A DNA stretch of 64,000 nt from Reclinomonas americana ATCC 50394. Its lineage: Eukaryota. The translations under genes and the position numbers were made by a program. The first letter of the stretch is position 1. Each line of letters begins with the position of its first letter. The notes under the pieces are model-generated. The model saw only the letters and a list, made by a program, of their open reading frames with translations, did not search any database and had not been told where the DNA came from. Location: contig PS015015.1 of the NCBI GenBank assembly GCA_048213135.1, positions 158,925-222,924 on the forward strand, written 5' to 3'. Positions 1,101 to 64,000 of this stretch are shown one piece after another.

Positions 1101-5111
<4,011 letters not shown>

Positions 5112-38574: not shown

Positions 38575-38812
38575 CATTGAACAGACTCTGCGCGAGACCG
38601 TATCCCACGAGACCGAGTCCGACCAGCAGTCGGCCCACGCCCTACACGCGGAGCATGTGTGAGTGCAAGAGGAGAGAGAGACAGTGAGAGAGACAGAGAG
38701 TGTGTAAACTCACTCCAAAGGGAATCCCCATTCCGCCCGAGGCACCTCCGCCACTTCCGCCTTCGCCCGCGTTGGGCATGGCCTTGGAGACAAGAGCGCG
38801 GATGCGATTCAT
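38575..38812 (-). CDS. Prohibitin (PHB2-like) N-terminal two exons; remainder lost in gap
   Basis: MNRIRALVSK..G-rich..LLVGLGLVGYGLAQSLFN(V) matches the prohibitin-2 N-terminal TM pattern. Confidence 0.65.
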
Positions 38813-39075
38813 TTTGTGTTCTCTCCGCTGCTGCATGAGTCAGTGAGAGTGTGTGAAAGTGCACATGGCATGCGCAAACATGTACACACAAAGAGCGACA
38901 CAAAGAAGAACGACACACACACGCGCGCGCGTATGTGTATGTGTGTCTATACGAGTGAAGACTGCAACAGCACACAGACAGTGGGCGGGCTGTGAGCTCA
39001 CCTGTGTGCGACGAGAGTGTCGTGTGTGAGAGGACAGATGACGTCAGAGGGACACACACTTTGCCAACCCCGCGC

Positions 39076-42000: not shown

Positions 42001-42986
42001 GAAATGATTGTCTTCGATCCGCAAAAGTTCACGGCTCCTCCACGCGCAGTCGCGCCTTCGAGTTCGATTGGAGGTGCGACGTGCTTGGTGTTGTTATGTC
42101 ACAGCGTGATGGGGCTGCGACTGAACTCTCTTGGCAAACTTCGCAGGCCACCAGCAGGCATTGTTTTCAGCCGAGGACCGCGTGGTGTCGGAGCGCGAGC
42201 GCACCTCGGTTGCCGGTGATTTGTATCGCGGACAAGTCGTTGGCACGTCTGCGCTGCCTTCTGCCGCGGTGCCGACCTCCATCCCCTCCATGCCCGCTTC
42301 CAGCTGGTCATCGTACCAACAGTTCAATCCGATGGGTGGCATCGGCGGCGGTGGTGGTGGTGGTGGTGGTGGCGCCGGCGGTAGTGGTGTTGGCAGTGGG
42401 ATGGGTGCCGGTGGCGTGGGTTCTGGATTCCTCGGAGGCCCCATGTCTGGCTTTGCAAGCGCCATGGGTGGCGCGGGTGGCATGTCTGGCGCCGGTGCCT
42501 TTGGTATGGGCGCACCGTCGGCCGGTGACATGTTCCGTGGTGGATCATCGTCCTTTTTCGGTGGAGCGCAACCGTCGCCTGCCGTTGCGTACGGCAACAT
42601 GGCGCCGGCACACGCTTCCAACACGGATGGGTGCGTTTCCTGCAACTACAGAGATAACAGAGGTGGTTCTCACAAGTGCACTGCTGTAATGCGCGCAGCG
42701 TTGGACCCACTCCCATGTCGTGGATGTACGACACTGCTCTGCTGCCACCGCGCCCGCCGTCTGCACCGTTGGCTCCAGTTCCCAACTTTTCTGCGTACCC
42801 GATGCCGCCGGTGAGAGACGCAGTGTGCGCTTATGTCAGTGTCGTCCGCCTCCCTCACGCCTGCCGTGTTAGCAGCCGATGGGTGGCATGCCGTTTGGTG
42901 CGGCCCCAATGCCCTCTGCGCCGGGACCGCTGGGCAGTCCGTTTGTGTTCCCGAATCCAACGGGGACTGGCGGTGGTGGTGTCTGA
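39076..42986 (+). CDS. SMG7/EST1-family 14-3-3-like TPR protein (NMD factor); no PIN domain seen
   Basis: YEMIICEDH..LWRLVYYKPIEEFR, HKCLVFLGDLERYK..A.HCYLRA..P.SGSPQNQLAVLATY..AIYRYFRAL..PFLNARENL..LFEKN, followed by a low-complexity G/P/M tail. Confidence 0.88.
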
Positions 42987-43596
42987 GTGCGAGTATTCGC
43001 GCGTGAGTGTCTGTGTTCGGATGAGTGAGAGAGACGTGCGACCTCAGTGTCGCCTGTGGAGTCTTGCCAATGCGTGCAAGTGATCGCGGCGCCCCGTTCT
43101 GTGGCAGCGTGTGCAGATCCTCCTTTCGTCTTCTCCTTCCACCTCTGCATCCGACCCCCATCTGCGTCAATGACGTGGACGGTGGACGTGCGATGCTTGA
43201 GCAATAGAAAACAAGGGAAAAAACTCCCCACTGGTGTGATATTCGCCAGCTGGGTCACCCCGCGGTTGTAAGATATCGTGTGTGGTGCATCATACTATCT
43301 ATGTGTTATATATCCCTTCTTTCACTCTTTTTTTTTCCCTCCCAATTGTCTTTTCTATTCATTCTATATGCCCTTCTATCGTGCTGCCACTGCTCGCTTC
43401 CCTGTGAGCGAAGCGCGAGACGTAGTGTACGCCACTANNNNNNNNNNNNNNNNNNNNNNNNNNNNNNNNNNNNNNNNNNNNNNNNNNNNNNNNNNNNNNN
43501 NNNNNNNNNNNNNNNNNNNNNNNNNNNNNNNNNNNNNNNNNNNNNNNNNNNNNNNNNNNNNNNNNNNNNNNNNNNNNNNNNNNNNNNNNNNNNNNN

Positions 43597-46500
43597 TGGC
43601 GCAATCGGGATCTCAATGTGAATCTCGTTGAGGATGACCGTGTTGCGCTCGGTTCCGTAGCGACCCGTGTCGTACTCAATGGTGCCAAACACCACACTGG
43701 TCTCCGACGACGACACCTTCAAGTTGACCGACACCATCTGCTTGCCAAAGCCGGCAATGGTGTAACTCTGTGGCCGGTCCATGATCTTCAGATCGCCCAC
43801 CGTGTTCAACTCGACCGTCAGGTTCTGCAGCGTCTCGTTGGTCTGGTTGACCACCAACACCTGGAGCACGACAGGGGTGATCGGATGAGCACAAAAAGGG
43901 AAAGAAGGGAGAGCACACACGCACAGCACCTCCAGTGACACGTCGTACTCGCGCACAGTGACACAGGCCTCGGCATAGACAGGATCCGAGAAGCCCGTCA
44001 ACTGGGTGATGCGACCCAACCGATCAGTGAACTCGCTTGTCCGGTCACCGGCCTTGGCCTTTGTCATGTCTGCACGCAAACGTGAGACACGTAAAGCAAG
44101 TCGGGTTCAGAGATGCGCCATCAACACACCTTCTTCCTCATCCTCAACGTCCAACACACCCACATCCGCCTTGAGCTGGCGGAAGGCAATGACCTTGTCA
44201 GCAGGTGTGCCGACAGTGCTGTGAGAGTGCGGCGCGCGTCAGTCGGGAATGCAGAGGAGTGGAGAGCAACAACGGAAACACGGGTACGTACGTCTCGTCC
44301 TCCTTTTTGCCCTTCAGCGCCTGTTCCTCGCGCTCCTCTCGCGCGTGCAACCGCTCGTACATCAGATCCAGACCATGCATCGAGCCGTCGGTAATGATGC
44401 CTCTGCAACAGGGAAAAGAAAAGTGATGTGATGAAAACAGAATAGCGCGACGCTCAGGGCCTGGGAGGCAGTACGCACGCGACATCGGCGTCGTTCGGGT
44501 TCGCCAACATGCGCAGGCATCGGTACAAGTGGTCACGCGGATCCTCGTCCATCCTCTCCGGCACCAGCGACGAGTGGCCGAGGCGAATCATGGCGCTGAT
44601 GTACAGCATGACCTCGGTCAGCAAGCCATTGCGAATCTCCTCCGACAAGCCAATCCTGTAGGCCTTGAGGACCAGCTTGGTCAGCGCACTGGCCACACAT
44701 ACACTGGTGTAGTAGTCGGCCTCCAGGAGGTACGCTGCGGTGTGATGAATGAGCACCACACGACATGCAGCAACAAGCGTGCGAGACGCAACTGCGCAGG
44801 GTCTTCACAACCGCAGCAGCCGCCGCGGCCGCCGACGCTTCCTTGTCCACTGGTGTGCTGTCGGTGGCATATGTGCCGTCGGCCAACACACGAGTCTTGC
44901 GCGTGGTGATGCTCGGTGCACTCGAGGTTGTCGTGTGTCCACTGTGTGTCGAGCTGGCGTCGTCGTCGCGAGCAGCCGGATCCACTTCGCTGGTGAACGG
45001 AATGGGCCCGAGAGACTGCTTGATGGTGGTCACCGCCGCCATAATGTCGTGGTGCTCGCTGCTGAATGCAGCCAAAATCCACACCACCACACGGAACACC
45101 TTGGCAGTGGTGATGCTCGGGAACACAACGTGCAGCTTTTGGAGGATCGAANNNNNNNNNNNNNNNNNNNNNNNNNNNNNNNNNNNNNNNNNNNNNNNNN
45201 NNNNNNNNNNNNNNNNNNNNNNNNNNNNNNNNNNNNNNNNNNNNNNNNNNNNNNNNNNNNNNNNNNNNNNNNNNNNNNNNNNNNNNNNNNNNNNNNNTCA
45301 CGCAGCTCCGGGAAGCGATGCATGATTTCGCTGCGCGGCAGAGGGAAGTGAGCGACGTGCTTTTTGTGTGTGCGTACACAGAAATAGAAACACACAGACA
45401 GACCGCACAAAAAGCGCCACATCCAGGGCGGATGGGCTCGTATCGCCCAAAAAGTCCATCAGCAAGTGCACCACGCTGTGTGCCAACTCTGGGAATCGCA
45501 CCGCGCAGCGGTGGATGGTGCGGATGATCATTCTCCGGTACTCGGCCGCCTGTCGCCCATTGCACATGAGACAGGGGAATGTGCACGAGAGAAAAGAAGT
45601 ATGTATGTGTGCACATGCACGCAACTCCATCAATGGCTTCCGTTTGTGCCTTGCTGACCTCTTTCTTCAGGAACACCATCACCTCTTCCACGTTGCGCGA
45701 CGACACCAAGTCGAGCGCCACGTTGATGACTTTCTCGCGGATTTCCACATTCGGGCTGCGTGATAAATGTGTGTGAGTGAGGAGAGCGAGTTGTCAAGAT
45801 GGAACGACGCCTGCTTTACCGACCTTGCCACACCGCGCAAAATGTCCATCACCAAGTCCTCCATGACGACGCTGAATCGCTTCTTCATGTCTTGAATGCG
45901 GTCGAGAACAATCAGCTTGACGTTGTTGTCCGAGTGCTGCGGCATGACAACACATAAGCAACCAACATGTGAACAAGCAAAAAGGGGAGGCCGAAACTGT
46001 GGCCAACAACTGGCACAGAGTGGAGGCAGCAGCGCGGATTGAGGTCGGCGAGCGTGACATGGCCACCAGCGTAATGGCGGCCTGGTACACGACAGCATTC
46101 GACGGCGAGTTGAGCAAGTCAAACGTCATCTTCAAGTACCGTCCCTGTTCACGCGCTGGGTGTCAGCACCAACACAAAGGAAACCCACGACACACATATA
46201 TATAATCGCACACAAAACCTTGTCGGTGGGGTTGCTTCGGGCCAGCTTGCGCACGGCGTCGAGAACGACCAGCTGGAACTGCTCGCCGCCATTCTCCAGG
46301 TCAGAGATGCGCGAGCGCAGGTACTTGATCGCGCGGTCCTGCGCGCACTGGAACAGCATGATGAAAGCGTTGCGGCGGGCGCTGGCGTCGCTCTCACGAT
46401 CAGTGGACAGCGACTCCTCGGCCAGCTCGGCGGCCTCGGGGATCAGGTCGGGGTGTTGCCGGAAGATGGAGTACATGGCGAGCAGTGCATTCTTGCGCAC

Positions 46501-47346
46501 GTAGGCGTGGCGATGCGTCAGATTGATCTTGACCTCGGAGGCCAGCTCCTCTAGTAGCTCCACCTGGTCGACCTTGGAGAGGAAACGCAGCGTGGCGCCG
46601 CGCACGTACTCGTTGGGGTGGTTGAGATTCTTGCGAATGTGGTTGGAGACGAGAATGAGCTCAGGCAACAGCTTGCCATCCGCACTGGTCTTCCTGATCG
46701 ACTCCCAGTACAGCAGCAGAAGCTTCTGCAGCGTCTTGTCCTCCTGCATGATGAGCCACAAAAGAGTGAGCGCAAATTGGGTAACACGCATCAAGTTCAC
46801 GCGCGCACACACATGCACACCAAGGACAGCGTGGTCTCCACACTCACGACAGGCGTGTGGTGTGGAGAGAGGGGGAGGACAAGAGGAAGATGAAGAAGAA
46901 GAGAAAGACAGTGTGTGCGTGCGCGCGAAAAATGGCGCGCCCCCAAACACACGCACGCAGGCACGCACACTCACGCTCGTCGCCCACAGGTACACTGACG
47001 ACGCACACACGCACATACACATACACACGCGCACGTATCACACACACAAAAGCAAAAGCAAGGGACACACTCAAGATTTACACACACGTGTCAAGCTCTC
47101 TTGCCTCCCACCCTCCCTCTCTCGCTCTCATGCTACCCACTCAACTCGAGGCATGACGTTCTGGATGATGGGCATCAACAGCTGCTGCACCCGCTCGCCC
47201 TGCAGCAGCAGCGTCAGGATACGACGCATGGCCACCACTCGCTCAGCATCCGAGCCCGTCTCAATCGTCTTGCGCAGCTCCTGCGTCGATGGCGGGTCGG
47301 TGTCCCGCGGCAACAGCAGAGTGCATGCACCGTCGTAGAGTGCCAT
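43597..47346 (-). CDS. COPB1: Coatomer subunit beta (beta-COP), 3' end in gap
   Basis: KLLLLYWE..GKLLPELILV..LNHPNEYVRGATLRFL..HRHAYVRKNA, SDNNVKLIVLDR, TRVLADGTYAT, and QLTGFSDPVYAEA..NQTNETLQNLTVEL.T.GDLK. Confidence 0.96.
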
Positions 47347-47441: not shown

Positions 47442-48325
47442 GGGAGCAAGGTCACGCGGCACCTGGACGGCATGTTGCATGTGTTGTCGACGGGCGACGA
47501 GCGACCGCGACTCGTGCATCGACTCGACAAAGACGCCAGTGGGTGCATTGTGGTGGCGCGCAGTCGCGAGGCGGCGGCGTACCTTGCGCGGTGGTTCACG
47601 TACACACGGCCCGATGCGGCCACCATTCTCAACAACCGCGACGCCACCGATTCACTCTTTTCGGTGGTGCGTCGGGGCTCCTATCGCCGAGTGCCGGTGG
47701 ACGAGGCCGCCTCGCTGCTGTACATCAAGAAGCGCTACTGGGCGTTTGTGAGTGGCGCACCCGAGGTGTCGGAGGGGAGAATACGAGCGCCGTTGCAGAA
47801 GGGTGTGTGTGTGTGTGTCGGTAGCAGTGTGAGCAACGTGAGCGACGATGAGTTGACTCTTATTATCACACAGTGGCCACGACCGATGGAGGCCGCGGTG
47901 GTGAGCAAATGATGGTGGTGTCGGAGGACGCCGGTCAGTTTGCCGTCAGCGAGTATCGCGTGATGGACCGGGCGGGGAAGCAGGTGTGTTGGCGATGGAC
48001 AAGGGGGGAAAAGGATGAAATGGAAAGGCTCATCGGGCTGCGTCAGGGCGCCTGGCTTGAATTGTCGCCACTCACCGGGCGCACGCACCAACTGAGAGTC
48101 CACACGGCGTCGGTGCTGCGGTGCCCGATTGTCGGCGATCACAAGTACGGTCTCGGAGTGCCGCCAGGGCTGCGCGAAGCCTGTCCGCAGCCGATCCTGC
48201 AACTGCATTCGCGCCAGATCATCCTGCCGTACCGCAACGCAGCCGGTGAGTTCCTGTGCGTGACGGCACCGTTGCCGCAGCACATGCGCCACACCTGGAA
48301 GTACTTTGGGTTTGAGCTAGATTAA
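47442..48325 (+). CDS. RluA/RPUSD-family pseudouridine synthase (5' end in gap)
   Basis: Catalytic motif LVHRLDKDASG, KRYWAFVSG, and LSPLTGRTHQLRVH..PIVGDHKYG..LQLHS. Ends TAA at 48325. Confidence 0.92.
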
Positions 48326-48375
48326 AAGTCATGATGCATTCGTCACACACTTGTTGAAAACTGGGTGCTGCAGTC

Positions 48376-48447
48376 GGCCGTTTGGTCTAGTGGTATGATT
48401 CGCCGTTCGGGTCGGTGAGGTCCTGGGTTCAATTCCCAGAACGGCCC
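48376..48447 (+). tRNA. tRNA-Pro(CGG)
   Basis: GGCCGTT/AACGGCC acceptor stem, D arm TGGTCTAGTGGTATGATT, anticodon arm CGCCG-TTCGGGT-CGGTG, T arm CTGGG-TTCAATT-CCCAG, followed by T-run Pol III terminators. Confidence 0.93.
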
Positions 48448-48861
48448 TGCTTTTTTTGCGCTTTTTTTATTTCTCTGCGCTCGTCGTATATCACTCACTG
48501 CTCTGTACTGCATGTAACAAAGTCGCGAGAAACATGCAAAAAACAAATGCACGCGAAAGAGAAAGAGAAAAAACAAAAGATATCGAATGTTCGGATTCTT
48601 GTGCTTCCACTCTGCCTTCGTTTCCCTTCTTCACACACTTCTTCTCACTCTCTCATCACTACGTACCCTATGCATCCACCCTTGAATTCGACGAGAGGCA
48701 AAAAAGAGACGAGGAAACAGAAGAAATCCGAACATCGATATTGTTTTCTTTCTCTTTCGCGTGCATTTTTTTGCATGTTTCTCGCGACTTTGTTGCATGC
48801 AGTACAGAGCAGTGAGCGATACGACGAGCGCAGAGGAATAAAAAAAGCGCAAAAAGAAAGA

Positions 48862-48933
48862 GGGCCGTTCTGGGAATTGAACCCAGGACCTCACCGACCC
48901 GAACGGCGAATCATACCACTAGACCAAACGGCC
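48862..48933 (-). tRNA. tRNA-Pro(CGG), identical second copy
   Basis: Exact reverse complement of 48376-48447, with its own T-runs downstream. Confidence 0.93.
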
Positions 48934-49143: not shown

Positions 49144-49477
49144 ATGCAGTCGCGCACGGCATTGGCAGTGGCCCTTGTTGTGGCCGCCCTTCTGGCGGTG
49201 CTCATCGGCAGCACGTCGACACTCGCCTCGCCGGCCTCCGCCAATCTCTTCATGAACGTGGGGTCGAGTGGCGAGACCGCGCTTCCGAAGGGAGTCGGTT
49301 CGTGGGAAGAGTTCCTCGAGAAGCTGCTGGAGCATGCTGAGGAGGTGAGGCGGGAAGGGAGGAGAATGGAGGGAGGGAGAAGGGAGAGGGAGAAGGGAGG
49401 GGGTGTGAGAAGGGGACAGGGGGTCTTCTTATTTGTGTCATGAAGCGCTCGGAGTGTGAATGTGTGATACACAGAGA

Positions 49478-49512
<35 letters not shown>

Positions 49513-52500
49513 ATACACAGGAGAGAGTGTGTGTATGAGAGAGACAGAGAGTATTCTCTCTGGGGGTCGGATGATTGACCGCATTTCCGCAGATCAAGAC
49601 CTTTATCGAGCGCATCACGGACCTCAAGCGCTTCCAGTACGCCGAGGTGTGTGTGGCTCCTTGTCGCCGTACAACCGCCTCCTCTTCTCACTCCTCTGCC
49701 CGCAGGACTGTGTCAAGCTGTACTCGGAGGCCACGGCCACAGATTGGTCCGTGCGCGCCATCATTGTCGATCGCAAGCCGGTCGTGCAGACCGACTTGTA
49801 TGAGACTCAGGTCGGCACTCGTGGTACTGGCGTTGCTCTCATCTGCCGCTTACTTTGTTTTCTTTCGCCGCAGCTGCTCCTCGAGCAAACCGACACCCAC
49901 ATGTCGCAGATGGTCAATCTGTTCATGAATGAGAAGCCGCAGCTGACACTGGATCACTACGTGGTGGTGCCGGAGGTGTGTGTGTGTGGCGTGAGATGCT
50001 CCAGCATTGTACACTCGCCTTGGCGATTCACTGTGCGGTGCTGTGCAGAGCGACGAGCTGTGCGACGGCTTGTCGAAGGACTATGGTTGCATCTGCAACA
50101 CTCTCGGCCACTGCCAGACCGGCACCATGAAGGCCGATCCGTGGACCCGGGCGGTCCGTCTTCTCGCGCACACTCGCTTGCTTGCTTGCGTCTTCAGCTG
50201 ATGTCGTTGCTGGATGCAGGCCGTCGACTTCCAGTTCTTCGAGCTCGGTCGCAACCGCACTCTCAATCAAGTGCAGTGGATGCAGGTGCGTTCCAGTCTC
50301 TCTCGTGTCTGTCCCTGCTTGCTCATCGACTCACCGTCATCCTGTCATGGTATGCAGTCGCACAATGCCTACAACACACGGTTCGTCGCATGCGGAAACA
50401 AGGCGTCTGTTGTGTGGACGCTCTCTCATTCTTTCTTTCATCCCATTGCTCAGTGCCAACGGTTACGGTCTGGAGGACAACCTGTGGGGCGGCATCTTCT
50501 CGATCATTGCTCCAGGCGAGCAGATCATTGTCGCCAACCACGAGGTTTGTTCTGCTGTGTTCTTTGCAGAGCATGTTGTTGTCGATGCTCATCTCTCGCA
50601 TGCTTCAGTTCTCGTTGACCGATCAGCTCAACGCCGGTGTGCGTGCGCTGGAGTTCGATCCGCACTGGTTCAACGGCAAGATCCGCCTGTTGCGTTCCGG
50701 TTGTGGTCGACTCTGTTATAGCGGTTGTTTCTCACAAGATTGTGTTATCTTTCGGTTGCAGGTGCCACTCTGGTGTGTATGTTCTTCACGTCGCTCTGTT
50801 GCTGCTGCGGCGTCTGGTGCTTACTTGTAATACGTTCTCCACAGGTATTCCCGACATTGCATGGGTCGACAAGCTGGTGGCCGTGATCTCCAAGATCATC
50901 GGTCGCCCGATTGACTGGTGCACCACGGAAGTTGCGTGGGCTTCTCGTTCACTTTCCACGCCCATCAGTTGTCTCACTCCCAATGCCCTGCGACGCAGTT
51001 GGTCTGTGGTCTGTGGGATCGCCCGTACGCTGATGGCATTGCCGAGGTGGCCGACTGGTTGAAGAAGCCCGAGAACCAGCACGAGATCATCAACTTTTAC
51101 TTTGAGAATCGTTGCGTCGACAGTGTCTCGTCGTGTGCAGTATGCTCACCACTGACATTTCCCTGTGTATGGTGATGCAGACTACCGGTTCACATTTGGC
51201 AAGGTGCGGATGCAGTCATTTATCTTCCATCGCTCTCGCCGTCACTTACACCTCATCCCGCACAGAACGACCTGATCAACAACCCCATCCGCGATCACTT
51301 GGGCGACCTGGTGTACACACCGGCCGATCGTGCCGCGCAGTTTGGCAACAACACCGAGTTGAGTTCCACTTTCATCAACGGATGTTGCAGCATCTGATAC
51401 CAACTCGTGCTCTCGCGCAGCAAGTGGCCGACGGTGCAGCAAATGATTGACATGGGCAAGCGTGTGGTGATTGGCACGAATGACGACACCAACGGTGGCG
51501 TGTACGTGCACCAAAACTTCTGGACGGAGTGGGGCATTGATGACCTCGCCAAGGATCCGTTCCCACACTGCCTCGGCGCCAATGAGACCATGTGGTCTCG
51601 TATCGTTGTGTCTCTTGCCTCGTAGTCATGCCTTTCTCCGGGAGTGTGTTCGCTGACTCGTAGCTGCTTCCGTTTTGCAGTACGGCACTCACTTGTGCTA
51701 CCCGGTAAGTAACAAGGAAGGGCAATGGAGCTGTGGCAACGAGTTGCTCACTCGCGCTGCCTTCTGATATGCAGCCCGTCGAGGAGTCCGGCTGCAAGCC
51801 CCCGTATCCCGAGTCCTTCTTCCCGGAGCGCGTTCCATGGGTTGCGTCTTGCTCTCTCTCTCTCTCTCNNNNNNNNNNNNNNNNNNNNTCTCTCTCTCTC
51901 TCTCTCTCCGCTCGTTTATGTGAGTCTGACATGAACCCATGCACACAGGCCACTGACTGCGGTGCGCTTGCTCGTCACCATCCCGGTTGACACGATCGTC
52001 GGTTGCTGAACCTTTCTCCTTTTCTCTTGTTGCAGGTATCACGTGGATTGGCTGGGATCGCACGTCGCCGGGTGTGTTCTTTTTCTCGCCAGCTTTCCTC
52101 TGAGTCCGTCTGCGTTTGCTAACCTGTCGAGTTGCGTTTCAGCGCTGACTGCGGGTGGCATTTGGAGCTGGGCGCCAGGAGAGCCCCGTCTCAGTTTCGT
52201 CAAGAGTGTGTGGCCTGTGCATTTCCACGATTCCATCCTCTCACTGCCCTCGTGCGCCTGTCGACAGCCAACGCCTGTGTGGTCATGGACTCGACGAGCC
52301 ACTGGATCACTGCCCCGTGCTCCTCCCTCTCGACCCCCTACCGCGCCTGCCGCAACCTCCAGAACGACCTGCAGTGGACCGTCGGCAGTGGGTGAGTTCT
52401 CCACAAGAAGAAATCTGCTGCGGTCCTCTTTGCTAACTCGTTGCCCCTCGCAGTTCCTGCCCGTCTGGCTTTGTCTTCGACACACCGGTCAGTGGCAAGC

Positions 52501-52574
52501 AGAACCACATTCTGTGGCTGTCGGCCTCCCAGTCGCAGCAGGCTGCCGGCATTCTGCTGCCGTGGCGCACCTGA
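49144..52574 (+). CDS. Secreted PI-PLC-like (PLC X-box/TIM-barrel phosphodiesterase, Rv2075c-like) protein, copy A
   Basis: Signal peptide, SHNAYN, NHEFSLTDQLNAGVRALEFDPHW..RLCHS, WLKKPENQHEII.FYFE, WPTVQQMIDMGKRVV, and Cys-rich C-terminus WSWAPGEP..ACVVM..W...C. About 20 introns. Confidence 0.8.
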
Positions 52575-52783
52575 AAGCTGAATTCTCTGCCAAGTCGGAA
52601 GTGACGCATACGCCTGCGTTGTAACTTTTTCCTCTCTCTCTCTCTCTCCATCCCCACTGTTGTTGTTCGTTCCATCTATTCTCTCCCGCTATGCGCCACC
52701 CCGACAATCGTTTCCTGAGTTAATGATCATCATCACGCGAAGTGCTTTTGAGTTGTCCCGCACCACACCCTGAGTGAGACAGA

Positions 52784-55700
52784 ATGTCACGCGCACTGCT
52801 TGTGGGTGCCGTGGCGGCCGCCGCCTTGCTGGTGATGCTCGTCAGCTCATTCATGGCTGCGCCGGTCTCCGCCTCGATGGTGATGAATGCGGCGAGCCGC
52901 ACACCGCTGTCGACCAGCATTTTCGGATCGTGGGAAGAGTTCCTGGCCAAGCTAATTGAACACGCCGATGAGGTAGTTGGCACACACACACACACAAGGA
53001 TGTGCTCGAGCGATAGAGAGAGAGAGGGAGAGATCACAGGCTTTATGTGCGTGCATTCATCACAAGATCCATCCAGCATTGATCCGCGATTGATCCCCCA
53101 CGTGTCTCACTCTTGCCCTATTGACTCTCCTTTTATGACATCCACTCGACTCACGCGGTAGTTCTCCTCCCGACAGATCAAGTCGTTCATTGAGCGCATC
53201 ACTGATCGCAAGCGCTTCCAGTACGCTGAGGTGATCTGAATAGATCCGTGTGTGTGGTGAGTTCGTGTGAGCTGACTCCGCGTGCTCAGGACTGTGTCAA
53301 GCTGTACTCGGAGGCCACGGCCACAGATTGGTCCGTGCGCGCCATCATCGTCGATCGCAAGCCGGTCGTGCAGACCGACTTGTATGAGACTCAGGTCGGC
53401 ATTGGTGGTTGCAGGGTTGCTCTCATCGATCATCGATTGCTCACTTTGCTTCCTTCCACCGCAGCTGCTCCTCGAGCAAACCGCAACGCACATGTCACAG
53501 CTGGTCAACCTGTTCATGAAAGAGAAGCCGCAGTTGACGCTGGATCACTACATTGTCGTACCCGAGGTTTGCGAGTGAGACGCACTCCGCACTCGTGCAG
53601 CGCCATCTCAACCTCCTTGCGGGCAGAGCGATGAGCTGTGCGACGGGTTGTCTAAGGACTATGGTTGCATCTGCAACACTCTTGGTCACTGCCAGACTGG
53701 CACCATGAAGGCCGATCCGTGGATCCGAGCGGTCAGTATTCTCGCGCACACTCACGTGCTTGCTTGTGTCTTCAGCTGAAGTCGTTGCTGGGTGCAGGCT
53801 GTGGACTTCCAGTTCTTCGAGCTCGGCCGCAACCGCACTCTCAACCAAGTGCAGTGGATGCAGGTACGCTGCTTCAATGCGGTGGATGTGCATCTGGTGT
53901 TGTGACATTAACCGCGATGCATGTCACTTGCAGTCGCACAACGCCTACAACACGCGGTTTGTCGTGAGAGAAAGCCGCGTGCGTTCCACAAGACTCCACT
54001 CTTATTCTTCCTTTCGTCGTATCACGCAGTGCCAACGGGTACGGTCTGGAGGACAACCTGTGGGGTGGCATCTTCTCAATCATTTCTCCGGGCGAGGACA
54101 TTATCATTGCGAATCACGAGGTCTGCTCGTGTCGACTTGTCTCATCGCATGAACAGCAAAACTGACCAGAGTACTCGGCTGTGGCAGTTCTCGTTGACCG
54201 ACCAGCTCAACGCCGGTGTGCGTGCGCTGGAGTTCGATCCGCACTGGTTCAACGGCAAGATCCGCTTGTTGCGTTCTGATGTTGTCTGCTGCCCCTCTGC
54301 TTTCGTGCTCTTACCGTTGCAGCTGTCCGTAGGTGCCACTCCGGTCCGTGAACATTCTTCTCATCGCAGGCTGTCCTCGAGTTATTGACACCCTTTGCAG
54401 GCATTCCCGATGTCAAGTGGGTCGACAAGCTGGTTGCGGTTCTCTCCAAAATCATCGGTCGCCCGATTGATTGGTGCACCACCGAAGTTGTGTGAGCTTC
54501 TCGTTCACTTCTTGTTCCCGTCAATTGTCTCACCTCAACGCAGTTGGTGTGTGGTCTGTGGGATCGCCCGTACGCTGATGGCATTGCCGAGGTGGCCGAC
54601 TGGTTGAAGAAGCCCGAGAACCAGCACGAGATCATCAACTTTTACTTTGAGAATCGTTGCGTCGACAGTGTCTCGTCTTGTGCAGCATGCTCAACACTGA
54701 CACTTCTCTGTGCATGGTGATGCAGACTACCGGTTCACGTTTGGCAAGGTGCGGATGCAGTCATATATCTCCCTTTTCTTTGCCGTCACTCACGCCTCCT
54801 TGTGCACAGAACGACCTGATCAACAACCCCATCCGCGATTACTTGGGCGACCTGGTGTACACACCGGCCGATCGTGCCGCGCAGTTTGGCAACAACACTG
54901 AGTTGCGTTCCACTTTCATCAATGGATGTTGCAGCATCTGATACCAACTCGTGCTCTCGTGCAGCAAGTGGCCGACGGTGCAGCAAATGATTGACATGGG
55001 CAAGCGTGTGGTGATTGGCACGAATGACGACACCAACGGTGGTGTGTACGTGCACCAGAACTTCTGGACCGAGTGGGGTGTCAACGCCCTGGCCAACAGC
55101 CCGTACCCCACGTGCCTCAACACCAATGAGACCATGTGGTCTCGTATCGTTGCGTCACCCCCCCCCCCAGCGCTTGTCCGTGTGCACTGCACTGCTTACA
55201 CATCTTCCGCAATGCAGTTCGGCTCCTATTTGTGCTACCCGGTGCGTGCTAGCGCGATGTGCGACGACTCGTTTGTTGTTCGTGACTCACGTTGTTGTCG
55301 TGCAGCCGATTGAGGACTCTGGCTGCAAGGCGCCATATCCCGACTCGTTCTTCCCGGAGCGCGTGCCCTGGGTTGCGTCTCGCACTCCTGTTTCCACGAT
55401 GTTGCTGCTGTTTCTCTTCTCATTCTTGTCATGTTCACAGGCCACGCAATGCGGTTTGTCTCCGTGTCCACCCTGCTGCTGACTTGCGCCATCGCTCACC
55501 AATTTTTGTAGGCATCACTTGGATTGGGTGGGATCGCACATCGCCAGGTACCACTCTCGCGGGTGGGGCGAACGTAGCAGCTAATGGTGTCTTACTCTCT
55601 CGCTGTGCAGCACTAACGGCCGCCGGCATCTGGTCGTGGGCGCCAGGCGAGCCTCGTCTCTGTTGCGTGCAATTACCAGCTCATTTTATCTGTATGTCGC

Positions 55701-56032
55701 CATGACCTCACTCGTCTCGCAAAGCCAACGCCTGTGTGGTCATGGACTCCACCAGTCGCTGGGTGACCATTCCATGTGCGTCGGCGCCGACCGACGTGGC
55801 CTGTCGCAACATCGATAACGATTTGGATTGGGTCGTGAGCAGTCGGTGAGCCGCGAGAGGACGCTGACTCACAGTTTCCTGCGCCCTCACGCCCCGTTCA
55901 TGGTACAGATCGTGCCCCGCCGGCTACGTATTCGACACGCCGGTCAGCGGCAAGCACAATCACGCACTGTGGTTGGCCGCCACCACCTCGCAAAAGGCCA
56001 CCGGGATCCTGCTGGCCTGGCGCACCACCTGA
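52784..56032 (+). CDS. Secreted PI-PLC-like protein, tandem copy B
   Basis: Same exon structure and motifs as copy A, with a diverged signal peptide and C-terminal exons. Ends WRTT-TGA. Confidence 0.8.
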
Positions 56033-56903: not shown

Positions 56904-57991
56904 TTACATGCGTTTCCACCAGAAGACCACCAGCAACAGCAGCGTCACCAGCGCCATGGCGATGTACACAATCCACCGTTCCAAGAACTGCTGCCGGTCA
57001 ATCAAGCGCAACAATTGCGTGGATATGCCGAGCGAGTTGAACATGTCGAGCACCTTGCGATAGGCCCCCTGCTCGACACGGTGATCAGGATCGCATCGTG
57101 CTGCTGTCTTTCCAACCCCCACATCCACCCACCTTCAGCCTGTCGCCCTGCCTCTGCAAGTCGGTGAGCACATCGGCACCGGTATCGTGGATCTCACTCA
57201 TCAGCTGCCTCGATCGTCGCAACGACCCTTGCTCGTGCGTCAGCTCGTCGATGCGCACCGACGTCTGCACCACAAGTGAGTCACCAGCCGCCGAGAGAGA
57301 CGAAGAAAGCAAGCTCGCACCTCTGCCCGCATGACCTCAATCTCTCGCCTCTCGTCGTCGCGGCGCTTCAGGCGCAACGCGAAGCGATTCATCGAGTCTG
57401 TCAGCTCCCGCGCTTCTTGCGTGAGATTGCGAATGAGACTGCATGCAGACCACAAGTCAGTCTCGCCACAACACACTCGCAGTATGCATACACACAGACC
57501 CATTCCACTTGGCGGCGGCCGACACCGACTCACGACGCGCCATCGCCTTCATATTCTCAATGCCGCGCGTGGCCGCGTCCAGCTTCTGTCTCAACAGCGC
57601 AGTCGACGACGGGAGCGATGACTACGAGAGACCACAGTGAGTGAGCGCGTGGGTGGCGTGAAGAGGGGGCGAGCCACACCGATGAGCCACCAGCTGCCCA
57701 CTCGACCACATGTCCATCTGCGTCGACAGTTGCAGCTGCTGCAGCTGCTGCCTGTGACGATGCGTGTGACTCGTCGCCGTTGCGTGTGCTCTCCTCTCCG
57801 TGCCTCTCCAGCTCGGTCAGGCGGCGTTGCACTTCAGCGAGTGCGCGCTTCACGTCTTGGTACCTGATCGATGCAGATGATGAGAGAAGTCGTTACAGCG
57901 TCGTGTGCGCATGTGCGCTCTCACACACTCTATGTGTGTGTGTGTGTGTGTAGCACACATGTGCGCGCAACTGGATGTCAAGAGCACTCAT
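56904..57991 (-). CDS. GOSR2: Golgi Qb-SNARE membrin/GOSR2/Bos1
   Basis: SLRRSRQLMSEIHDTGADVLTDLQRQGDRLKGAYRKVLDMFNSLGIS..LLRLIDRQ followed by a C-terminal TM. Confidence 0.85.
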
Positions 57992-58154
57992 TTGTGCGTC
58001 GCCACTGTGCGTGCAACAAGAGCTTTCACTCAACACGTGGCTTGCAAGACTCGAGTAACGAAATGAACGAAATTGAGGAGATGCAGGCATAAGGACTTCC
58101 ACATTGTACACCATCGATTGTGTGACGCGCCGCGTGGCTGCGAGATGCCTCTAA

Positions 58155-59314
58155 CTAGTCGCGCGCTGCGCGCTTCAGCATCGACGCATTGGCCGGCGCC
58201 GGTCGAGCGGCGCCGCCCTTCTTGCCGGGCGCCGCCTTGGAGGGATCGTACGAGGGCTTCAACCACGACTTGATCGGCACGTATCCACGCTTCCACATGT
58301 CTTGCAGCTGCGCGCGCAAGAAAGAGCGAGACTATACGTGAGCAAGCTCGTTGTTGTGCATGCATGCATGCATGTTGGTGTGTCGAACCTGCTTCTTCAG
58401 CGTCAATGCAAGCAGGATGAGGAAGTACAGCAGCAAGACGGGCCAGTACACCGGCACATCGGTGAGGTACGTCATTGTGGCCAGCAGTGCCAGTGCCGTC
58501 GACACAGCAATGTTTTGCCTGCCACGTCGTCAGCGGGCTACAAGAGCGAAACGAAACGAGACAACAAACGATGCACGCACCACAACTTGAACTCGGGGAG
58601 CTGTGGCGCGCGCGCGTAAACAGGTGTCAGCGTGTGAGGACCCAAGAGAGCGAGAGAGCGATGGGCGACGCGCACACCTGTCCAATGAATGGCCTGTACT
58701 CCTCATCGTTGGTCATTGGGAGCGTCGGACCCTCGTCGGAATCATCCAGTGGTGTCACGAAGCCAATGAGTGCGTTGAGGATGTAGATTCCTGCGTCGAT
58801 CAAGTCGATCAGCACAAACACCACACCTTACACACCGACACACACAGCACATCACACACCAAGCGCGTACGACACAATGTACCAGCCAGAAGCCACCTGT
58901 CGATTGCACGTATTGATGAGCTTATTTCCTCTCTGTGTGTGTTGACTGTATGTGCGTGTGTGTGTGGACGCACCCACACACGAATGATGTAGAGCAGCAC
59001 GAGAGTGCCGGCGACTGCCCATCGCTTGCCCACATGCGGGTTCAATCGATCAAGCAGAATCTGCGCCTTAATCTTGAACGATCGCTTTAGCCTCTCCTGC
59101 AAGACGCACACACACACACAAAGAGAGCGCATGGGAAGGATGAAGAACGTGAGAAAAAACATGCATTTTGACGTGCGCGACTCTTTTTTTTTATGTTGCA
59201 CATGTTCGACACACATAAACACACACATGCGCGCAGAAAACGGCAAGATAGAAACGCAACAAGCAGAGGCAGTGCCTCGCTCTTCTCCTCGCCGCCTTGA
59301 ATGCTGAAGCTCAT
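58155..59314 (-). CDS. RER1: Golgi-ER retrieval receptor RER1
   Basis: QILLDRLNPH..RW, GIYILNALIGFVTP, LPMTNDEEYRPFI..LPEFK.W, and DVPVYWPVLLLYF..TLKKQ..M.K.GYVP. Confidence 0.92.
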
Positions 59315-59451: not shown

Positions 59452-62400
59452 ATGGGCGGCACCGTCAAGCTCCGCATCTATGAAGCTCGTTGCGTGTGTG
59501 GAGTCGCATGAACGCGCGTGTTTGTTGTGTGCCATGTCTCGCTCTTCTTCCTCTTGCTCCCTCTCTCTCTGTGCGCATGTGTGTGCGTGGATGCAACGCT
59601 ATATGCAACTCACTGCGCTCTCTTTCTTTCTCTCTCATGCAGGCGACTTGCCTGTGATGGACTCGGCGACGGGCTTGGCGGATCCGTACGTCGAGATCCG
59701 CTTCTCGAGCTTTGCCGCCNNNNNNNNNNNNNNNNNNNNNNNNNNNNNNNNNNNNNNNNNNNNNNNNNNNNNNNNNNNNNNNNNNNNNNNNNNNNNNNNN
59801 NNNNNNNNNNNNNNNNNNNNNNNNNNNNNNNNNNNNNNNNNNNNNNNNNNNNNNNNNNNNNNNNNNNNNNNNNNNNNNNNNNNNNNNNNNNNNNACAATC
59901 CGTATCGCTTGACGTCGGCTGGCGTGCACTTTCGCACCTCGTCGATGTGGCCGGCGTTCACTGGCGAGGATCTGCGTGTCACCAAGGTGTATGGCCTGGT
60001 GGAGGACTTGTTGGCGCAGGAGGATCCGGAGCACACGTTTATGGAGTCGTTCCGTACCTCACGCACCTCCAACGAGGCTCGCCAGACGACGCTGGAGGCC
60101 ATGGCCGGCATGCTGCGGCGGCACATTGGTCGGAAAGTGCAGGGTACGTCTCCTCACACGTGGGGTTCTCTTGTGCGCCTGTCACTCACTCGTTGCTTGC
60201 GCAGAGCTCGGCGGCAATGCTGTTCTCGGATTCCGCATCGAGTTCGATCTGCAATCGGAGCTCAGCGTGGTGATTGCTCGTGCGCAGGGCACAGCTGCTA
60301 TTCTGGAAAAGGTTCGTGGTCGAAACTCACTTGAACACACACACGCATGGTGCCTCCGTCTCACACGCACATCGGCACACAGAGTGAATCGTCGAGGTCA
60401 GCGTCGCCCACTCGCCTGTCGTCGCCGACGTCGCCCACATTGTCGCATGCCATCTCGCCAACATTGCGTGCACTGGCTCCGCCATTTGCACTGTCGGGAC
60501 CAGTGCCGTTGGGTCAGAGTCTCGACTCGTACGGACGGCGAGACTTGCTGCGCGACTCCCCGTCAAGTCCGGAAGAGGGTGGCATTCCGATTGCTGTCGC
60601 AGTGGTTTCGTTTGCTCCCCTTCTCCTCTCTTCCCCCCTAGCATTCTTTTCTTGACCCGACAACAATCTGGCGGCAGGCGCGCACCGGTAGCCCACGCTC
60701 GCGGCAGTCGCCAACATCACCGACGCCTGCGTCACCGTCGTCCTCTCGCAGACTTCGTGGATCGGTGAGTTCACCGGCATCGAATTTCGCATTGCGTGTG
60801 CCATGTGTGCTGACTCGACGAGCTCGGCACGCAGTTCCTCAGCAGCAGTGGTGGTGCTGGCGGAGGCATTTTGGAGGCGGCAAAACAATTTGGTGTCATG
60901 GACCCCAGCTCGTACCCTCCGCCGTTCGACGCGTCAGCGGTGCTGCCGCCACCGTTGGTGACCAGGGCTATCAGCAGTGGTCACTTGCCTCTGGGAGAGC
61001 ACGGAACGGGTGGCGGCAGTGCCACGTTGCTTCCTGTTGCTGCCGGTGCGGCTGGCGCAACGGCAGCAGCGCCTCTGTCGAACAAGAAGCGTCGGAAGAA
61101 GAAAACTGTCAGCGCAGACTCCGCAGCAGGTGCAGTGCTCTCACGCGCGCATGCATACACGTGTGTGTGCGCCTGTAGTGGACATCTCACCACGTGATTT
61201 TCTGCGGTGCAGTTCAGCGCGATCCCTCCACCGCCACCATCGGCCGTGTTCGACCTCGGAAGCGATTTTCGCGATCATTGTGGGGATCCACGCGACCGCG
61301 ACGAGAGGTGGACTTGTTCACGTTGACAGAGTTGCCGGCGCAGGCCATCGAGCAATTTGGCGGCGTGGTCATGGTGAGTCGCATGGGATAATGTGTGTGA
61401 TTCAGTCGACTGTTTTTCTCAATTGCACACTTCGGTGCAGTCGCGTGCGGTGAAGCTGCTGCCTGATGCCCGTCGCACTGGCCAGTCCATCCAGGACACG
61501 GAAGACGCGTGGTGGAATGAGCTTCGTGAGGAGGTGCAGAGTCACTGTCGTGCCCTGAATTGCACGCATGTGATTGGCTACACGGAGGCGTGTGTGGTTC
61601 ACGACGGTGCGCATTTGTCTGCTGCTTGAGGGGAAACGCCAATGACGCTGACACGATTGATGCAACATGCAGATATTGCCGTGCTCACGGCCACCGGCAC
61701 CGCCTGTGTGGTGGACGAGGAGCGAGCATTGCGTGCACTGCGACATACTCGTCGTTGCGTTTTGCCGCCACGCACACATAGAGACAAGGAAATTCGTGTT
61801 TGGCGACTAATGTCGATGTGCTGTATCATCTCTCTCTCTCTCTCCTTTCGCAGGGAGTGCGTGTCACTATGCGCACGTTCCGTTCAGGAAACGAGACCGA
61901 CCGTACCATATGAAGTTGCAGCTTTGTCACGTGTGCGGCAAGAAGTACGTGCCCGACATTATCCTGTCGACATCCGCGTTGCCGCACAGTGTTGCGTCAC
62001 GACTCCACGTCTGCCATGTCCTTCCACGCAGGTGCTGAATCGATTTTGCCCCCACCTCATAGTACAGCATCAAGGGCACTGGCCAGTTGCTGGAGGTTCG
62101 TGTGTCGCGCAGACTACGACGATCAACTGGCGAGAACCGTGCCGCCGAGATCAGTGCCTCGCTGCCGTTCTTGGAGTACGACATGCACCAACAGCTCATG
62201 AACAAGCTGCGCGTGGGTGGCATGAATGCCGTCTTCTCGCTCAAGTTCCAGGTGGCATTTTGTGAGCACACCATTAGTGCCATTGCGACTGGCACAGCAG
62301 TTGCGTTGTCGTTGCTGCTGCTGATGCCCGAGATGAGAATGCGTCGCGTGACCACGCCCGCGAACAGGTATTCATGTGCGCTCTGCCACCACCGCAAGTG

Positions 62401-64000
62401 TTGGCGATTGAGCGCATAAGTACGACTCTGAGTCGGGCGCCGAACATTGCACAGATCGTGGCGCATGTGCAGGCCATGAGCGAGCATAATGTTGCGTCTG
62501 CCTGCGTGGTGTTGCCGCTGTAGTCACTGCTCTCACATTCCTTCTCTGCAGCACGATGTTTGGCAAGATATGCCGGTGCTGGAAGCCCCGTCGGCGGTTC
62601 GTGAGAGAGTAGAGCGTGCCTTTCCTCGCCAGCTCATCCTGCTACCCCTCTCACCCCCATTCATTTCACCAGGATACGGACGAGAGCGGAACAAGTGAAT
62701 CAGCAGGCGAAAGTACAGGATCGGAGGGTTCCAGGTCGGTTGCTTCAATCTCTTTCTGTAATCGCCACTTCTTGCTGGCTGAGCCGAGGTGTCGCCGTGC
62801 AGTTCGTCTACGGAATCGATTGACTCGGACGCGCGCCCCGATGGCGATGGTCGACCTGCTTTTGTTATGCAGGTACGTCACAACGCCCTTTTGTAGCTGC
62901 ACTTGGATATACTCGCCCTCATCATGCGAACAACATTCGCAGCTTGACGACTCGACAGATGCCGATAATCTTGCCTGCTTGTTGGACGTGCTTCCGCCGC
63001 CCATAAAGCAAATTCCGCACGAGGTGCACGGCAGCCTCTACTCACCGGCCACTCGGCAAGGGCTGGAGTCGGGTGGCGGTGGGCGCACACCACCCCTGCA
63101 AATGTACGATCCGGAATGTTTCCTGTCGACGACCGAGTCGGTGCCTGGACTGCGATGTGCGCCGCTGTTGGACGCACAGTACGTGACGATTGTGAGGAGG
63201 TATCCGTACACTGGCGCTCTGCCTGGTCCGAATCAGGATTTGAGTGCCTGTCTCACGGATGCCTACGGATACATTCGTTTCAAGGTGAGGAGCTGCAGTG
63301 TCCAGTGGTGGAGTTTGTGATGTAGTTTCTCACACGTCTGTGCAGGCTCTGAGTTTATTCCACACATCTGCGGCCAGTGGTCTGGATGTGGACGTGTCGT
63401 TTGTGTCGGAGCACTTTATTCAAGTGATTGTGTCTGGCATGCTGTCGGCCTACGATGCCGAGGTTTGTGTGTGACGATGCTCTCTCCCGCAACCGAGTCA
63501 ACAATAGACTGAATTCTTTTTCGTTGCTGTGCAGGAGGTGCAACAGTGTCTAGGTGGTCGCATGTTGCCGCCGGCGCAGCCGCAGCATGTGCCAGAGAGT
63601 CGGCCGACTGCGCGTAGCGCCGGCGGTACGCCTCTGCTCCAGTCGACTCCCTCGGTCGTGCCGGCCGCTGAAGCAGACGACGAGCTGTTGTTCCAGTTTG
63701 AGACGGCGACCACCATTGGGACGGCCGGGGCGCCGGGTGCCGCCGCCGCACGACGTGAGTGAGCTTCTCCGTTTTGCGAAGATGCCATGCATGCATCTCT
63801 GACGCCTGCTGCACTGCAGACCATTCTATGCTGGAAGTTGGCACGTACGACGACGACTCCAGCCGTCTCGGCTCCAAGGTGGCCGTGGAGCACGTGTACA
63901 TGAGCAATCTCGGCCAATGCACCGGTGAGTGAGCGGCTCGTGCGCCAAGCATGCTGCGCCTTGATCGCTAACTGCCACACGCACAGGCTCCACCATCATC
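59452..64000 (+). CDS. C2CD5: C2 domain-containing protein 5 (CDP138/KIAA0528-like), runs off window
   Basis: MGGTVKLRIYEARDLPVMD..DPYVEIRF, DPEHTFMESFRTSRTSNEARQ..GGNAVLGF..FDL, DAWWNELREEVQSH, C..CGKKYVPDIILST, and LPFLEYDMHQQLMNKL..GMNAVF.LK. Confidence 0.92.

Follow-up and report, generated by a model that had tools for sequence, protein, structure and literature searches.

How does a spliceosome define introns that begin with GTTGCGT, when other introns of the same genes begin with sequences of the G|GTGCGT type? The question is raised by a stretch of 64,000 nucleotides (nt) of Reclinomonas americana ATCC 50394 DNA (NCBI GenBank assembly GCA_048213135.1, contig PS015015.1, positions 158,925 to 222,924 of the forward strand), here called the window and numbered from its first letter, in which seven pairs of such donors are predicted to begin homologous introns of two tandem paralogs, genes A and B. 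A sequence-only reading of this DNA had drawn attention to these donors and had proposed that purifying selection maintains them. We consider it likely that N|GTTGCGT represents a second class of U2-type GT-AG donor, being in effect the ordinary donor of this genome, G|GTGCGT, displaced by one base and read out of register; its members are referred to here as shifted donors. Direct support for such a class comes from the positions of the introns, the open reading frames, the conservation between the paralogs, the spread of the motif through the window, the absence of a G at -1 and the position-by-position correspondence with the ordinary donor.

The window consists of eukaryotic DNA of about 57% G+C with 13 assembly gaps, and its comparison with itself reveals a single duplication (49590-51856 versus 53174-55387). 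The model of gene A was built from coordinates and the introns of gene B were placed by alignment to A, whereby all 21 intron positions of A land on GT...AG in B; a 5' GT and a 3' AG are present in 42 of the 42 introns. These are 57-108 nt long, apart from the longer first intron (248 nt in A and 204 nt in B). Seven of the 21 introns in each copy have a donor of the form GTT[GT]NGT, and the remaining 14 donors of copy A are of the G|GTNNG type, all with G at -1 (coordinates of the shifted donors are collected in Table 1). The 14 hexamers listed in the sequence-only reading are correct in position and letters without exception (14/14), as is its observation that +3 T and +6 G are kept in all seven pairs; a feature that it leaves unmentioned is the T at +7, present in 14 of 14. 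Its statement that +4 and +5 drift holds for +5, where C is found ten times, T three times and A once, but not for +4, which is G in 13 of 14. The bases preceding the cut in the shifted donors of copy A are T, A, C, A, C, G and A, with G occurring once. At six of the seven shifted positions, retention of the intron would cause a frameshift or an in-frame stop in one copy or in both. The exception is intron 17, which in both copies has a length divisible by three and is free of stops, and for this reason its status in gene A rests on signals and divergence.

The intron interiors (+9 to -16) of A and B were aligned with each other, and 361 non-homologous A/B intron pairs served as a reference, whose identity is 0.49 ± 0.05 with a maximum of 0.64. 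The claim that the intron bodies can no longer be aligned is borne out for five of the seven pairs (introns 9, 11, 15, 17 and 20; identity 0.37-0.57) but does not apply to introns 12 (0.89) and 14 (0.97), which sit among exons that are 98-99% identical between the copies. Because they lie in a near-identical tract the pairs 51111/54656 and 51358/54902 are uninformative on selection, and the seven independent pairs that had been assumed shrink to an effective sample of five. Dropping all pairs with an interior identity above 0.60 (introns 3, 5, 7, 12, 13 and 14) leaves five shifted and ten ordinary pairs. In these, the two copies agree at +3, +4, +5, +6 and +7 in 5, 4, 3, 5 and 5 of the five shifted pairs as compared to 2, 4, 7, 2 and 3 of the ten ordinary pairs, which amounts to 22/25 versus 18/50 pooled matches (Fisher p 1.9e-5). 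With a local background identity of 0.29 (53/180 at +9 to +20), the probability that +3, +6 and +7 all match by chance in five informative pairs is about 1e-8.

Could the donors match simply because the duplication, or a gene conversion between the two copies, is recent? This explains the two pairs of introns 12 and 14, which together with exons 12-14 are 89-99% identical. However, the interiors of the other five pairs are at the level of unrelated introns and +3, +6 and +7 are kept nonetheless in 5/5, whereas at a comparable divergence of the introns ordinary donors retain +3 and +6 in 2/10 each; moreover, the heptamer is also found in unrelated genes. Five of the seven pairs contradict the view that recent conversion is the only cause, which was rejected, and we give an explanation without selection very little credence. 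Judged from the sequences of the two copies, purifying selection on the shifted donors is real and is stronger than that on ordinary donors. The idea that it is directed at GTT..G is upheld as regards the selection but not as regards its unit, as the whole of GTTGCGT is constrained, including +4 G and +7 T. The +6 G, for which a genome-wide comparison of per-position rates had been put forward as a check, is kept in 5/5 saturated introns within the one duplication of this window. Then again, the absence of class switches between the copies (0 of 21 intron positions) is weak evidence, since a switch would move the cut by one base and break the frame, and retention of the class is weaker evidence than the conservation of individual positions.

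What distinguishes the shifted from the ordinary donor? For this comparison we used a curated set of 52 introns from gene A and from the predicted coatomer beta and GH31 glucosidase genes of the window, leaving out gene B as non-independent; all 31 curated introns of the latter two genes start with GT. A donor was counted as shifted if it starts with GTT and carries G at +6 but another base at +5, a rule under which g|GTTTTGT is ambiguous. Shifted donors account for 14 of the 52 introns (27%). They have G at -1 in 2/14 cases versus 35/38 for ordinary donors (Fisher p 1.7e-7), and their -1 base (A 7, C 3, G 2, T 2) instead resembles the ordinary -2 base (A 19, C 11, G 5, T 3), as a shifted register predicts. 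The correspondence extends into the intron, where shifted +3 (T in 14/14) matches ordinary +2 (T in 38/38), +4 (G 11, T 3) matches +3 (G 26, C 5, T 4, A 3), +5 (C 10, A 2, T 2) matches +4 (C 16, T 11, A 8, G 3), +6 (G in 14/14) matches +5 (G in 35/38), and +7 (T in 13/14) matches +6 (T in 28/38). Thus, +3 T and +6 G owe their retention to being the counterparts, displaced by one base, of the ordinary +2 T and +5 G, which are the most strongly constrained intron bases of an ordinary donor, and +4 and +5 are freer because they are the counterparts of the two free positions of the ordinary donor.

In other respects shifted introns are like those with the ordinary donors of this genome (G|GTGCGT or, more generally, G|GTNNGT), with which they share GT-AG ends, CAG acceptors, lengths, the letters TGCGT and, as it seems, branch-like motifs (CTNAY-like). 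An uncalibrated CT[ACG]A[CT] motif is present at a distance of 10-40 nt from the 3' end in 7/7 shifted introns of A and 5/7 of B, with a similar spread among ordinary introns. The two classes differ in their -1 base and in that ordinary donors drift considerably at +3, +4 and +6, whereas shifted donors show almost no drift. With regard to the ordinary donors themselves, those of the curated set prefer G at +3 (26/38) and C or T at +4 (27/38), as opposed to the A and A of the textbook GTAAGT. This preference hints at a possibly non-standard 5' end of U1, but the G+C content alone may explain it. Two ordinary donors of gene B lack the +5 G that their counterparts in A possess, gag|GTAGTT at 52973 and cag|GTACCA at 55548 (both on the + strand); where the exon ends in AG, an ordinary donor apparently puts up with nearly any sequence on the intron side.

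The shifted motif extends beyond genes A and B. The two strands of the window together hold 45 copies of GTTGCGT, as compared to 15.4 ± 4.3 expected; none of 100 shuffles reaches 45, and 34 of the 45 copies lie outside A and B. One-letter variants are not enriched (ATTGCGT, 6 versus 8.9 expected; TTTGCGT, 3 versus 9.6; GATGCGT, 9 versus 13.9; GTTGCGA, 11 versus 16.1). A donor-blind gene model, which uses frame-aware dynamic programming with content and acceptor models trained on A and B and requires of a donor nothing but GT, employs 20 of the 45 GTTGCGT sites as donors versus a base rate of 195 in 8492 GT sites (2.3%), which makes this the most-used donor among GT heptamers with at least eight copies. 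Outside A and B the model picks GTTGCGT at 13 of 34 sites versus 2.0%. There, it predicts 152 introns, among which are 18 with GTTnnGT (-1 base: A 5, C 5, G 4, T 4) and 42 with GTnnGT (-1 G in 31); the other 92 start otherwise, and many of them are surely misplaced. An unsupervised three-class mixture fitted from a random start to the 195 donors assigns a weight of 0.24 to N|GTTGCGT and of 0.52 to G|GTG[CT]GT, the rest forming a noise class. A single-pass gene model without two classes of donor missed 9 of the 42 known introns of A and B, and gene models for this organism need a two-class donor model. One copy of GTTGCGT at 52131-52137 (+), which precedes the acceptor of intron 19 of gene A by a short distance and belongs to that intron, is unused in the model, which indicates that the heptamer alone is insufficient for use as a donor.

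A motif recurring at the ends of many introns might instead be the conserved terminus of a mobile, intron-generating element similar to the introners. Such an origin would fit with the uniform terminal heptamer and with the narrow distribution of intron lengths (57-76 nt), yet ordinary introns are equal in length, the bodies of the introns are unrelated (mean 0.49 and maximum 0.64 in the 361 non-homologous A/B pairs of this window) and self-comparison of the window shows no repeat family. As there are no sequence families among the intron bodies of A and B, introner termini were rejected, and we regard an origin of this kind as highly improbable. Introns of the U12 type are likewise a second class with a rigid donor consensus, RTATCCTY, which differs from the motif of the shifted class. 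This consensus occurs once in the window versus 1.36 times expected and is found at 0/14 shifted donors and at no curated donor; a U12-type identity was rejected.

Junctions in unrelated genes provide a further line of evidence. Pfam matches in the window include a GH31 glucosidase, a TOG/XMAP215 protein, a kinase, CEP76, coatomer beta, a C2CD5-like protein and others, and we locally aligned the spliced predictions for the GH31, coatomer beta and C2CD5-like genes to fetched homologues. The predicted GH31 alpha-glucosidase of 845 amino acids can be aligned end to end at 34-40% identity; in addition to its shifted donors it has 17 ordinary ones (-1 G in 16) and one g|GTTGCTA. Coatomer beta reaches 53% identity with its best homologue, its matches being a mix of eukaryotes, and two of its junctions that the gene model had mis-called were corrected by eye to g|GTCGGT (45823) and c|GTACGT (44291). 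In the C2CD5-like gene, the donor at 61754 falls in a stretch that is variable in the homologue alignment. Pfam profile coordinates, used as a junction check, abut exactly at one ordinary donor (CEP76_C 78/79, 31348) and yielded nothing of use for shifted donors. In agreement with the earlier conclusion that the class is functional, noise or sequencing error is ruled out: the donors are under selection, and they also serve genes unrelated to A and B, where homologous proteins confirm the junctions. As a side observation, the coding sequence of the GH31 gene, about 2.5 kb in length, is split by 20 introns and includes two micro-exons of 11 nt (3805-3815) and 8 nt (3729-3736) on the - strand, which align without gaps across the conserved PPYWGLG block.

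How might one machinery read both classes? We propose that both carry one signal, G-[G/T]-T-G-C-G-T, and that the same machinery would cut after the first G if the second letter is G, and before the first G if it is T. In the shifted class the first G of the intron would take the place of the last G of the exon and a T would sit at the place of the ordinary +1 G. The U1 small nuclear RNA (snRNA), and possibly later U6, would then pair one nucleotide out of register, with either the whole helix shifted or one of the two U's bulged out, and the cut would still fall at the single GU that the site offers, which lies one base upstream of the cut in the ordinary register. The pairing out of register and the snRNA that performs it are what we infer here. 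But why would positions +3 to +7 be near-invariant between the paralogs while ordinary donors drift? According to this proposal the exon gives no -1 G, so that recognition would depend wholly on +3 to +7 of the intron, and these positions would be held for that reason. Rfam families in the window comprise two tRNAs only, with neither U1 nor U6 among them.

Shifted-register 5' splice sites of human genes have reportedly been described by Roca and Krainer in 2009. At such sites all U1 base pairs are displaced by one position and the cut stays at the GU, according to PMC4856993. The position-by-position correspondence found in the window is what a shifted register of the human type predicts, and the two systems agree in their GT-AG ends, in poor pairing in the ordinary register, in the replacement of the -1 G by +1 G and in +6 G/+7 U taking the place of +5 G/+6 U. 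Unlike the human sites, which are rare exceptions (all validated non-canonical registers together amount to 3119 of 201,541 human 5' splice sites, or 1.5%, in the same source), the shifted donors described here make up 14/52 of the curated introns, follow a tight GTTGCGT consensus, are conserved more strongly than ordinary donors and are known from sequence. A search of the literature at the level of abstracts found no description of a GTTGCG-type donor class, though a genome paper may hold one.

To compare the registers, pairing was computed with the human-type U1 5' end printed in PMC4856993, which may not be that of this organism. For the 14 shifted sites the mean number of pairs is 4.07 in the ordinary, 6.79 in the shifted and 6.57 in the bulged register, as compared to 7.66, 4.55 and 6.13, respectively, for ordinary sites.

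Several points weigh against the reading in which U1 pairs with these donors one base out of register, and the first concern the pairing itself. Paired with the human-type U1, shifted donors give weak duplexes whichever register is chosen (-5.5 to +0.5 kcal/mol versus -1.4 to -10.9 kcal/mol for ordinary donors), and more than a standard U1 may be involved. Moreover, the mean numbers of pairs fail to separate a shifted from a bulged helix. In the latter, which is a variant of the same proposal, G +1 and U +2 pair with U1, one U, at +2 or +3, is left unpaired and the helix continues from +4; this register is the best or a tied one at 8 of the 14 sites, and it is known for human GUU... sites (PMC4856993, citing Roca et al. 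2012, tabulates 68 predicted sites among 201,541 human ones, of which 54 remain after curation). The shifted donors resemble these in their GUU start and in a number of pairs rivalling that of the shift, but differ from them in frequency, as they make up about a quarter of the curated introns. In a bulged helix, furthermore, the exonic -1 base would face C9 of U1 and should favour a -1 G, and neither the scarcity of this base nor its resemblance to the ordinary -2 is what such a helix would lead one to expect. N|GUUGCGU would also never outpair N|GUGCGU, so that the extra U would be without a selective reason. The absence of -1 G, together with the A-rich -1 position, favours the shift over the bulge, and we consider a simple bulge unlikely, although it would be a near relative of the shift.

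The weak duplexes also leave room for a dedicated reader, that is, a variant U1 or a U1 5' end changed in this lineage which would be fully complementary to GUUGCGU and would implement a second code. This would agree with the poor pairing of the class with standard U1 in any register and with its consensus from +4 to +7, which is tighter than that of ordinary donors. It would also agree with the preference of both classes for C or T and for G opposite bases 5 and 6 of U1, which fits G and C in U1. To our knowledge, however, the 5' end of U1 is nearly invariant among eukaryotes, and donors resembling GTGCGT occur in GC-rich genomes with standard U1. We rate a dedicated reader as rather improbable.

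A second group of objections concerns the boundaries of the introns. Support for the junctions comes from open frames, from conservation between the paralogs and from homologous proteins, and evidence at the level of the mRNA cannot distinguish a slide by one base at both ends because GT-AG introns begin and end with G; frames and homology fix the mRNA junction, and the slide gives the same mRNA. In each copy, frame-preserving alternative GTs lie within 45 nt of 6/7 shifted sites, and for intron 12, in the near-identical tract, it is the motif alone that argues for the called donor. Might other GTs therefore be the donors, might the cut be made one base inward (TT...CA), or might the additional T be a sequencing error? 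The upstream alternatives would place sequence that is 97-100% conserved inside otherwise saturated introns, and the shifted donors of the GH31, coatomer beta and C2CD5-like genes align without gaps in conserved blocks. If the introns ran from TT to CA, their last two letters would be CA, TA or AA, as opposed to the uniform AG. Finally, a spurious T would leave the 45 sites, the missing -1 G and the agreement of both copies unexplained, on which grounds sequencing error was rejected. Misplaced boundaries or an artefact of this kind seem to us hardly credible.

The remaining objections concern the gene models and the sample. The intron-content model had seen the heptamers of A and B in training, which introduces a small bias, and later donor-aware passes are partly circular, for which reason their class weights (0.26-0.31) were not used as estimates. 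The gene model mis-called 2 of 11 coatomer beta junctions, in one case by proposing a shifted-like donor that is false. The sample as a whole consists of one 64-kb window and 52 curated introns.

What would follow if the class proved to be general? It is possible, if somewhat doubtful at present, that about a quarter of the introns of this lineage are defined by a second code, N|GUUGCGU, which would be read out of register, would be under tighter selection and might have its own or a changed U1. Nature would then provide a system that uses register-shifted recognition as a matter of course; so far, out-of-register recognition is known from a small minority of human sites, among which it explains some puzzling donors and disease mutations. 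If about one in four introns is of this kind, with a sharp consensus and no -1 G, spliceosomes are able to work with two donor registers at once on a large scale, and such a genome would provide a natural data set on what fixes the position of cleavage after U1 has left. Standard gene finders trained on donors of the G|GTRAGT type could mis-annotate it.

Table 1. Predicted genes and shifted donors in the window (introns are given by their full extent, single donors by their heptamer or first position).
Feature	Position	Strand	Donor	Remarks
Gene A	49144..52574	+		22 exons, 21 GT-AG introns; frame of 589 amino acids open from ATG to TGA, no internal stop
A intron 9	50689..50761	+	t|GTTGCGT	interior identity to B 0.51; retention shifts frame
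A intron 11	50931..50998	+	a|GTTGCGT	interior identity 0.57; no frame-preserving alternative GT within 45 nt
A intron 12	51111..51180	+	c|GTTGCGT	near-identical tract, interior identity 0.89
A intron 14	51358..51420	+	a|GTTGAGT	near-identical tract, interior identity 0.97; in-frame stop if retained
A intron 15	51605..51680	+	c|GTTGTGT	interior identity 0.52; retention shifts frame
A intron 17	51841..51948	+	g|GTTGCGT	(CT)n run and 20-N gap; interior identity 0.37
A intron 20	52194..52267	+	a|GTTTCGT	interior identity 0.48; retention shifts frame
Gene B	52784..56032	+		tandem paralog of A; 21 GT-AG introns at homologous positions, open frame of 585 amino acids
B intron 9	54268..54332	+	t|GTTGCGT	
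B intron 11	54487..54543	+	a|GTTGTGT	
B intron 12	54656..54725	+	c|GTTGCGT	
B intron 14	54902..54964	+	a|GTTGCGT	
B intron 15	55149..55217	+	c|GTTGCGT	
B intron 17	55372..55440	+	g|GTTGCGT	
B intron 20	55662..55724	+	t|GTTGCGT	
GH31 alpha-glucosidase gene	1101-5111	-		20 introns
GH31 donor	4299..4305	-	c|GTTGCGT	gapless block (NLYG) versus 9 homologue segments
GH31 donor	2325..2331	-	t|GTTGCGT	gapless, highly conserved block
Coatomer beta donor	47139..47145	-	a|GTTGAGT	junction gapless versus 12 homologues
Coatomer beta donor	45997	-	a|GTTTCGG	junction agrees with 12 homologues
Coatomer beta donor	45619..45625	-	a|GTTGCGT	junction length agrees with most of 12 homologues
Coatomer beta donor	44786..44792	-	a|GTTGCGT	junction agrees with 12 homologues
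C2CD5-like donor	61991..61997	+	t|GTTGCGT	junction gapless versus 12 homologues
C2CD5-like donor	62300..62306	+	a|GTTGCGT	gapless in conserved block ATGTAVF...LPPP
C2CD5-like donor	62491..62497	+	t|GTTGCGT	gapless versus most of 12 homologues; block moderately conserved

The product of genes A and B may be a PLC-like phosphodiesterase, which its HNAYN and LCH motifs bring to mind; a word-based search with the longest exon returned no homologue, and none of 13 exon translations had a Pfam match at E values up to 1. The intron density of gene A is extreme, with 21 introns per 1770 nt of coding sequence (about 12 per kb), and the gene contains micro-exons of 11 nt (50762-50772) and 13 nt (51949-51961) on the + strand, which are found at the same places in B. 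Within the duplication, a tract at about 50999-51530 versus 54544-55075 that includes introns 12-14 is 89-99% identical, and the introns flanking it are saturated; the tract is probably the result of gene conversion or a younger segment. The assembly gap of 20 N in intron 17 of A lies within 51860-51910 with (CT)n on both sides, which makes the true length of this intron uncertain.

Further genes with Pfam matches at the level of exons, for which the models are rough, encode snurportin-1-like, condensin II CAP-H2, EST1/SMG6-like, pseudouridine synthase, Rer1 and v-SNARE proteins; the spans of these rough models are 21021-23246 (+), 18253-20932 (-), 38655-43765 (+), 47442-48815 (+) and 56904-59314 (-). 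Just upstream of gene A lie two tRNA-Pro(CGG) genes of equal score in opposite orientation, at 48376-48447 (+) and 48862-48933 (-).

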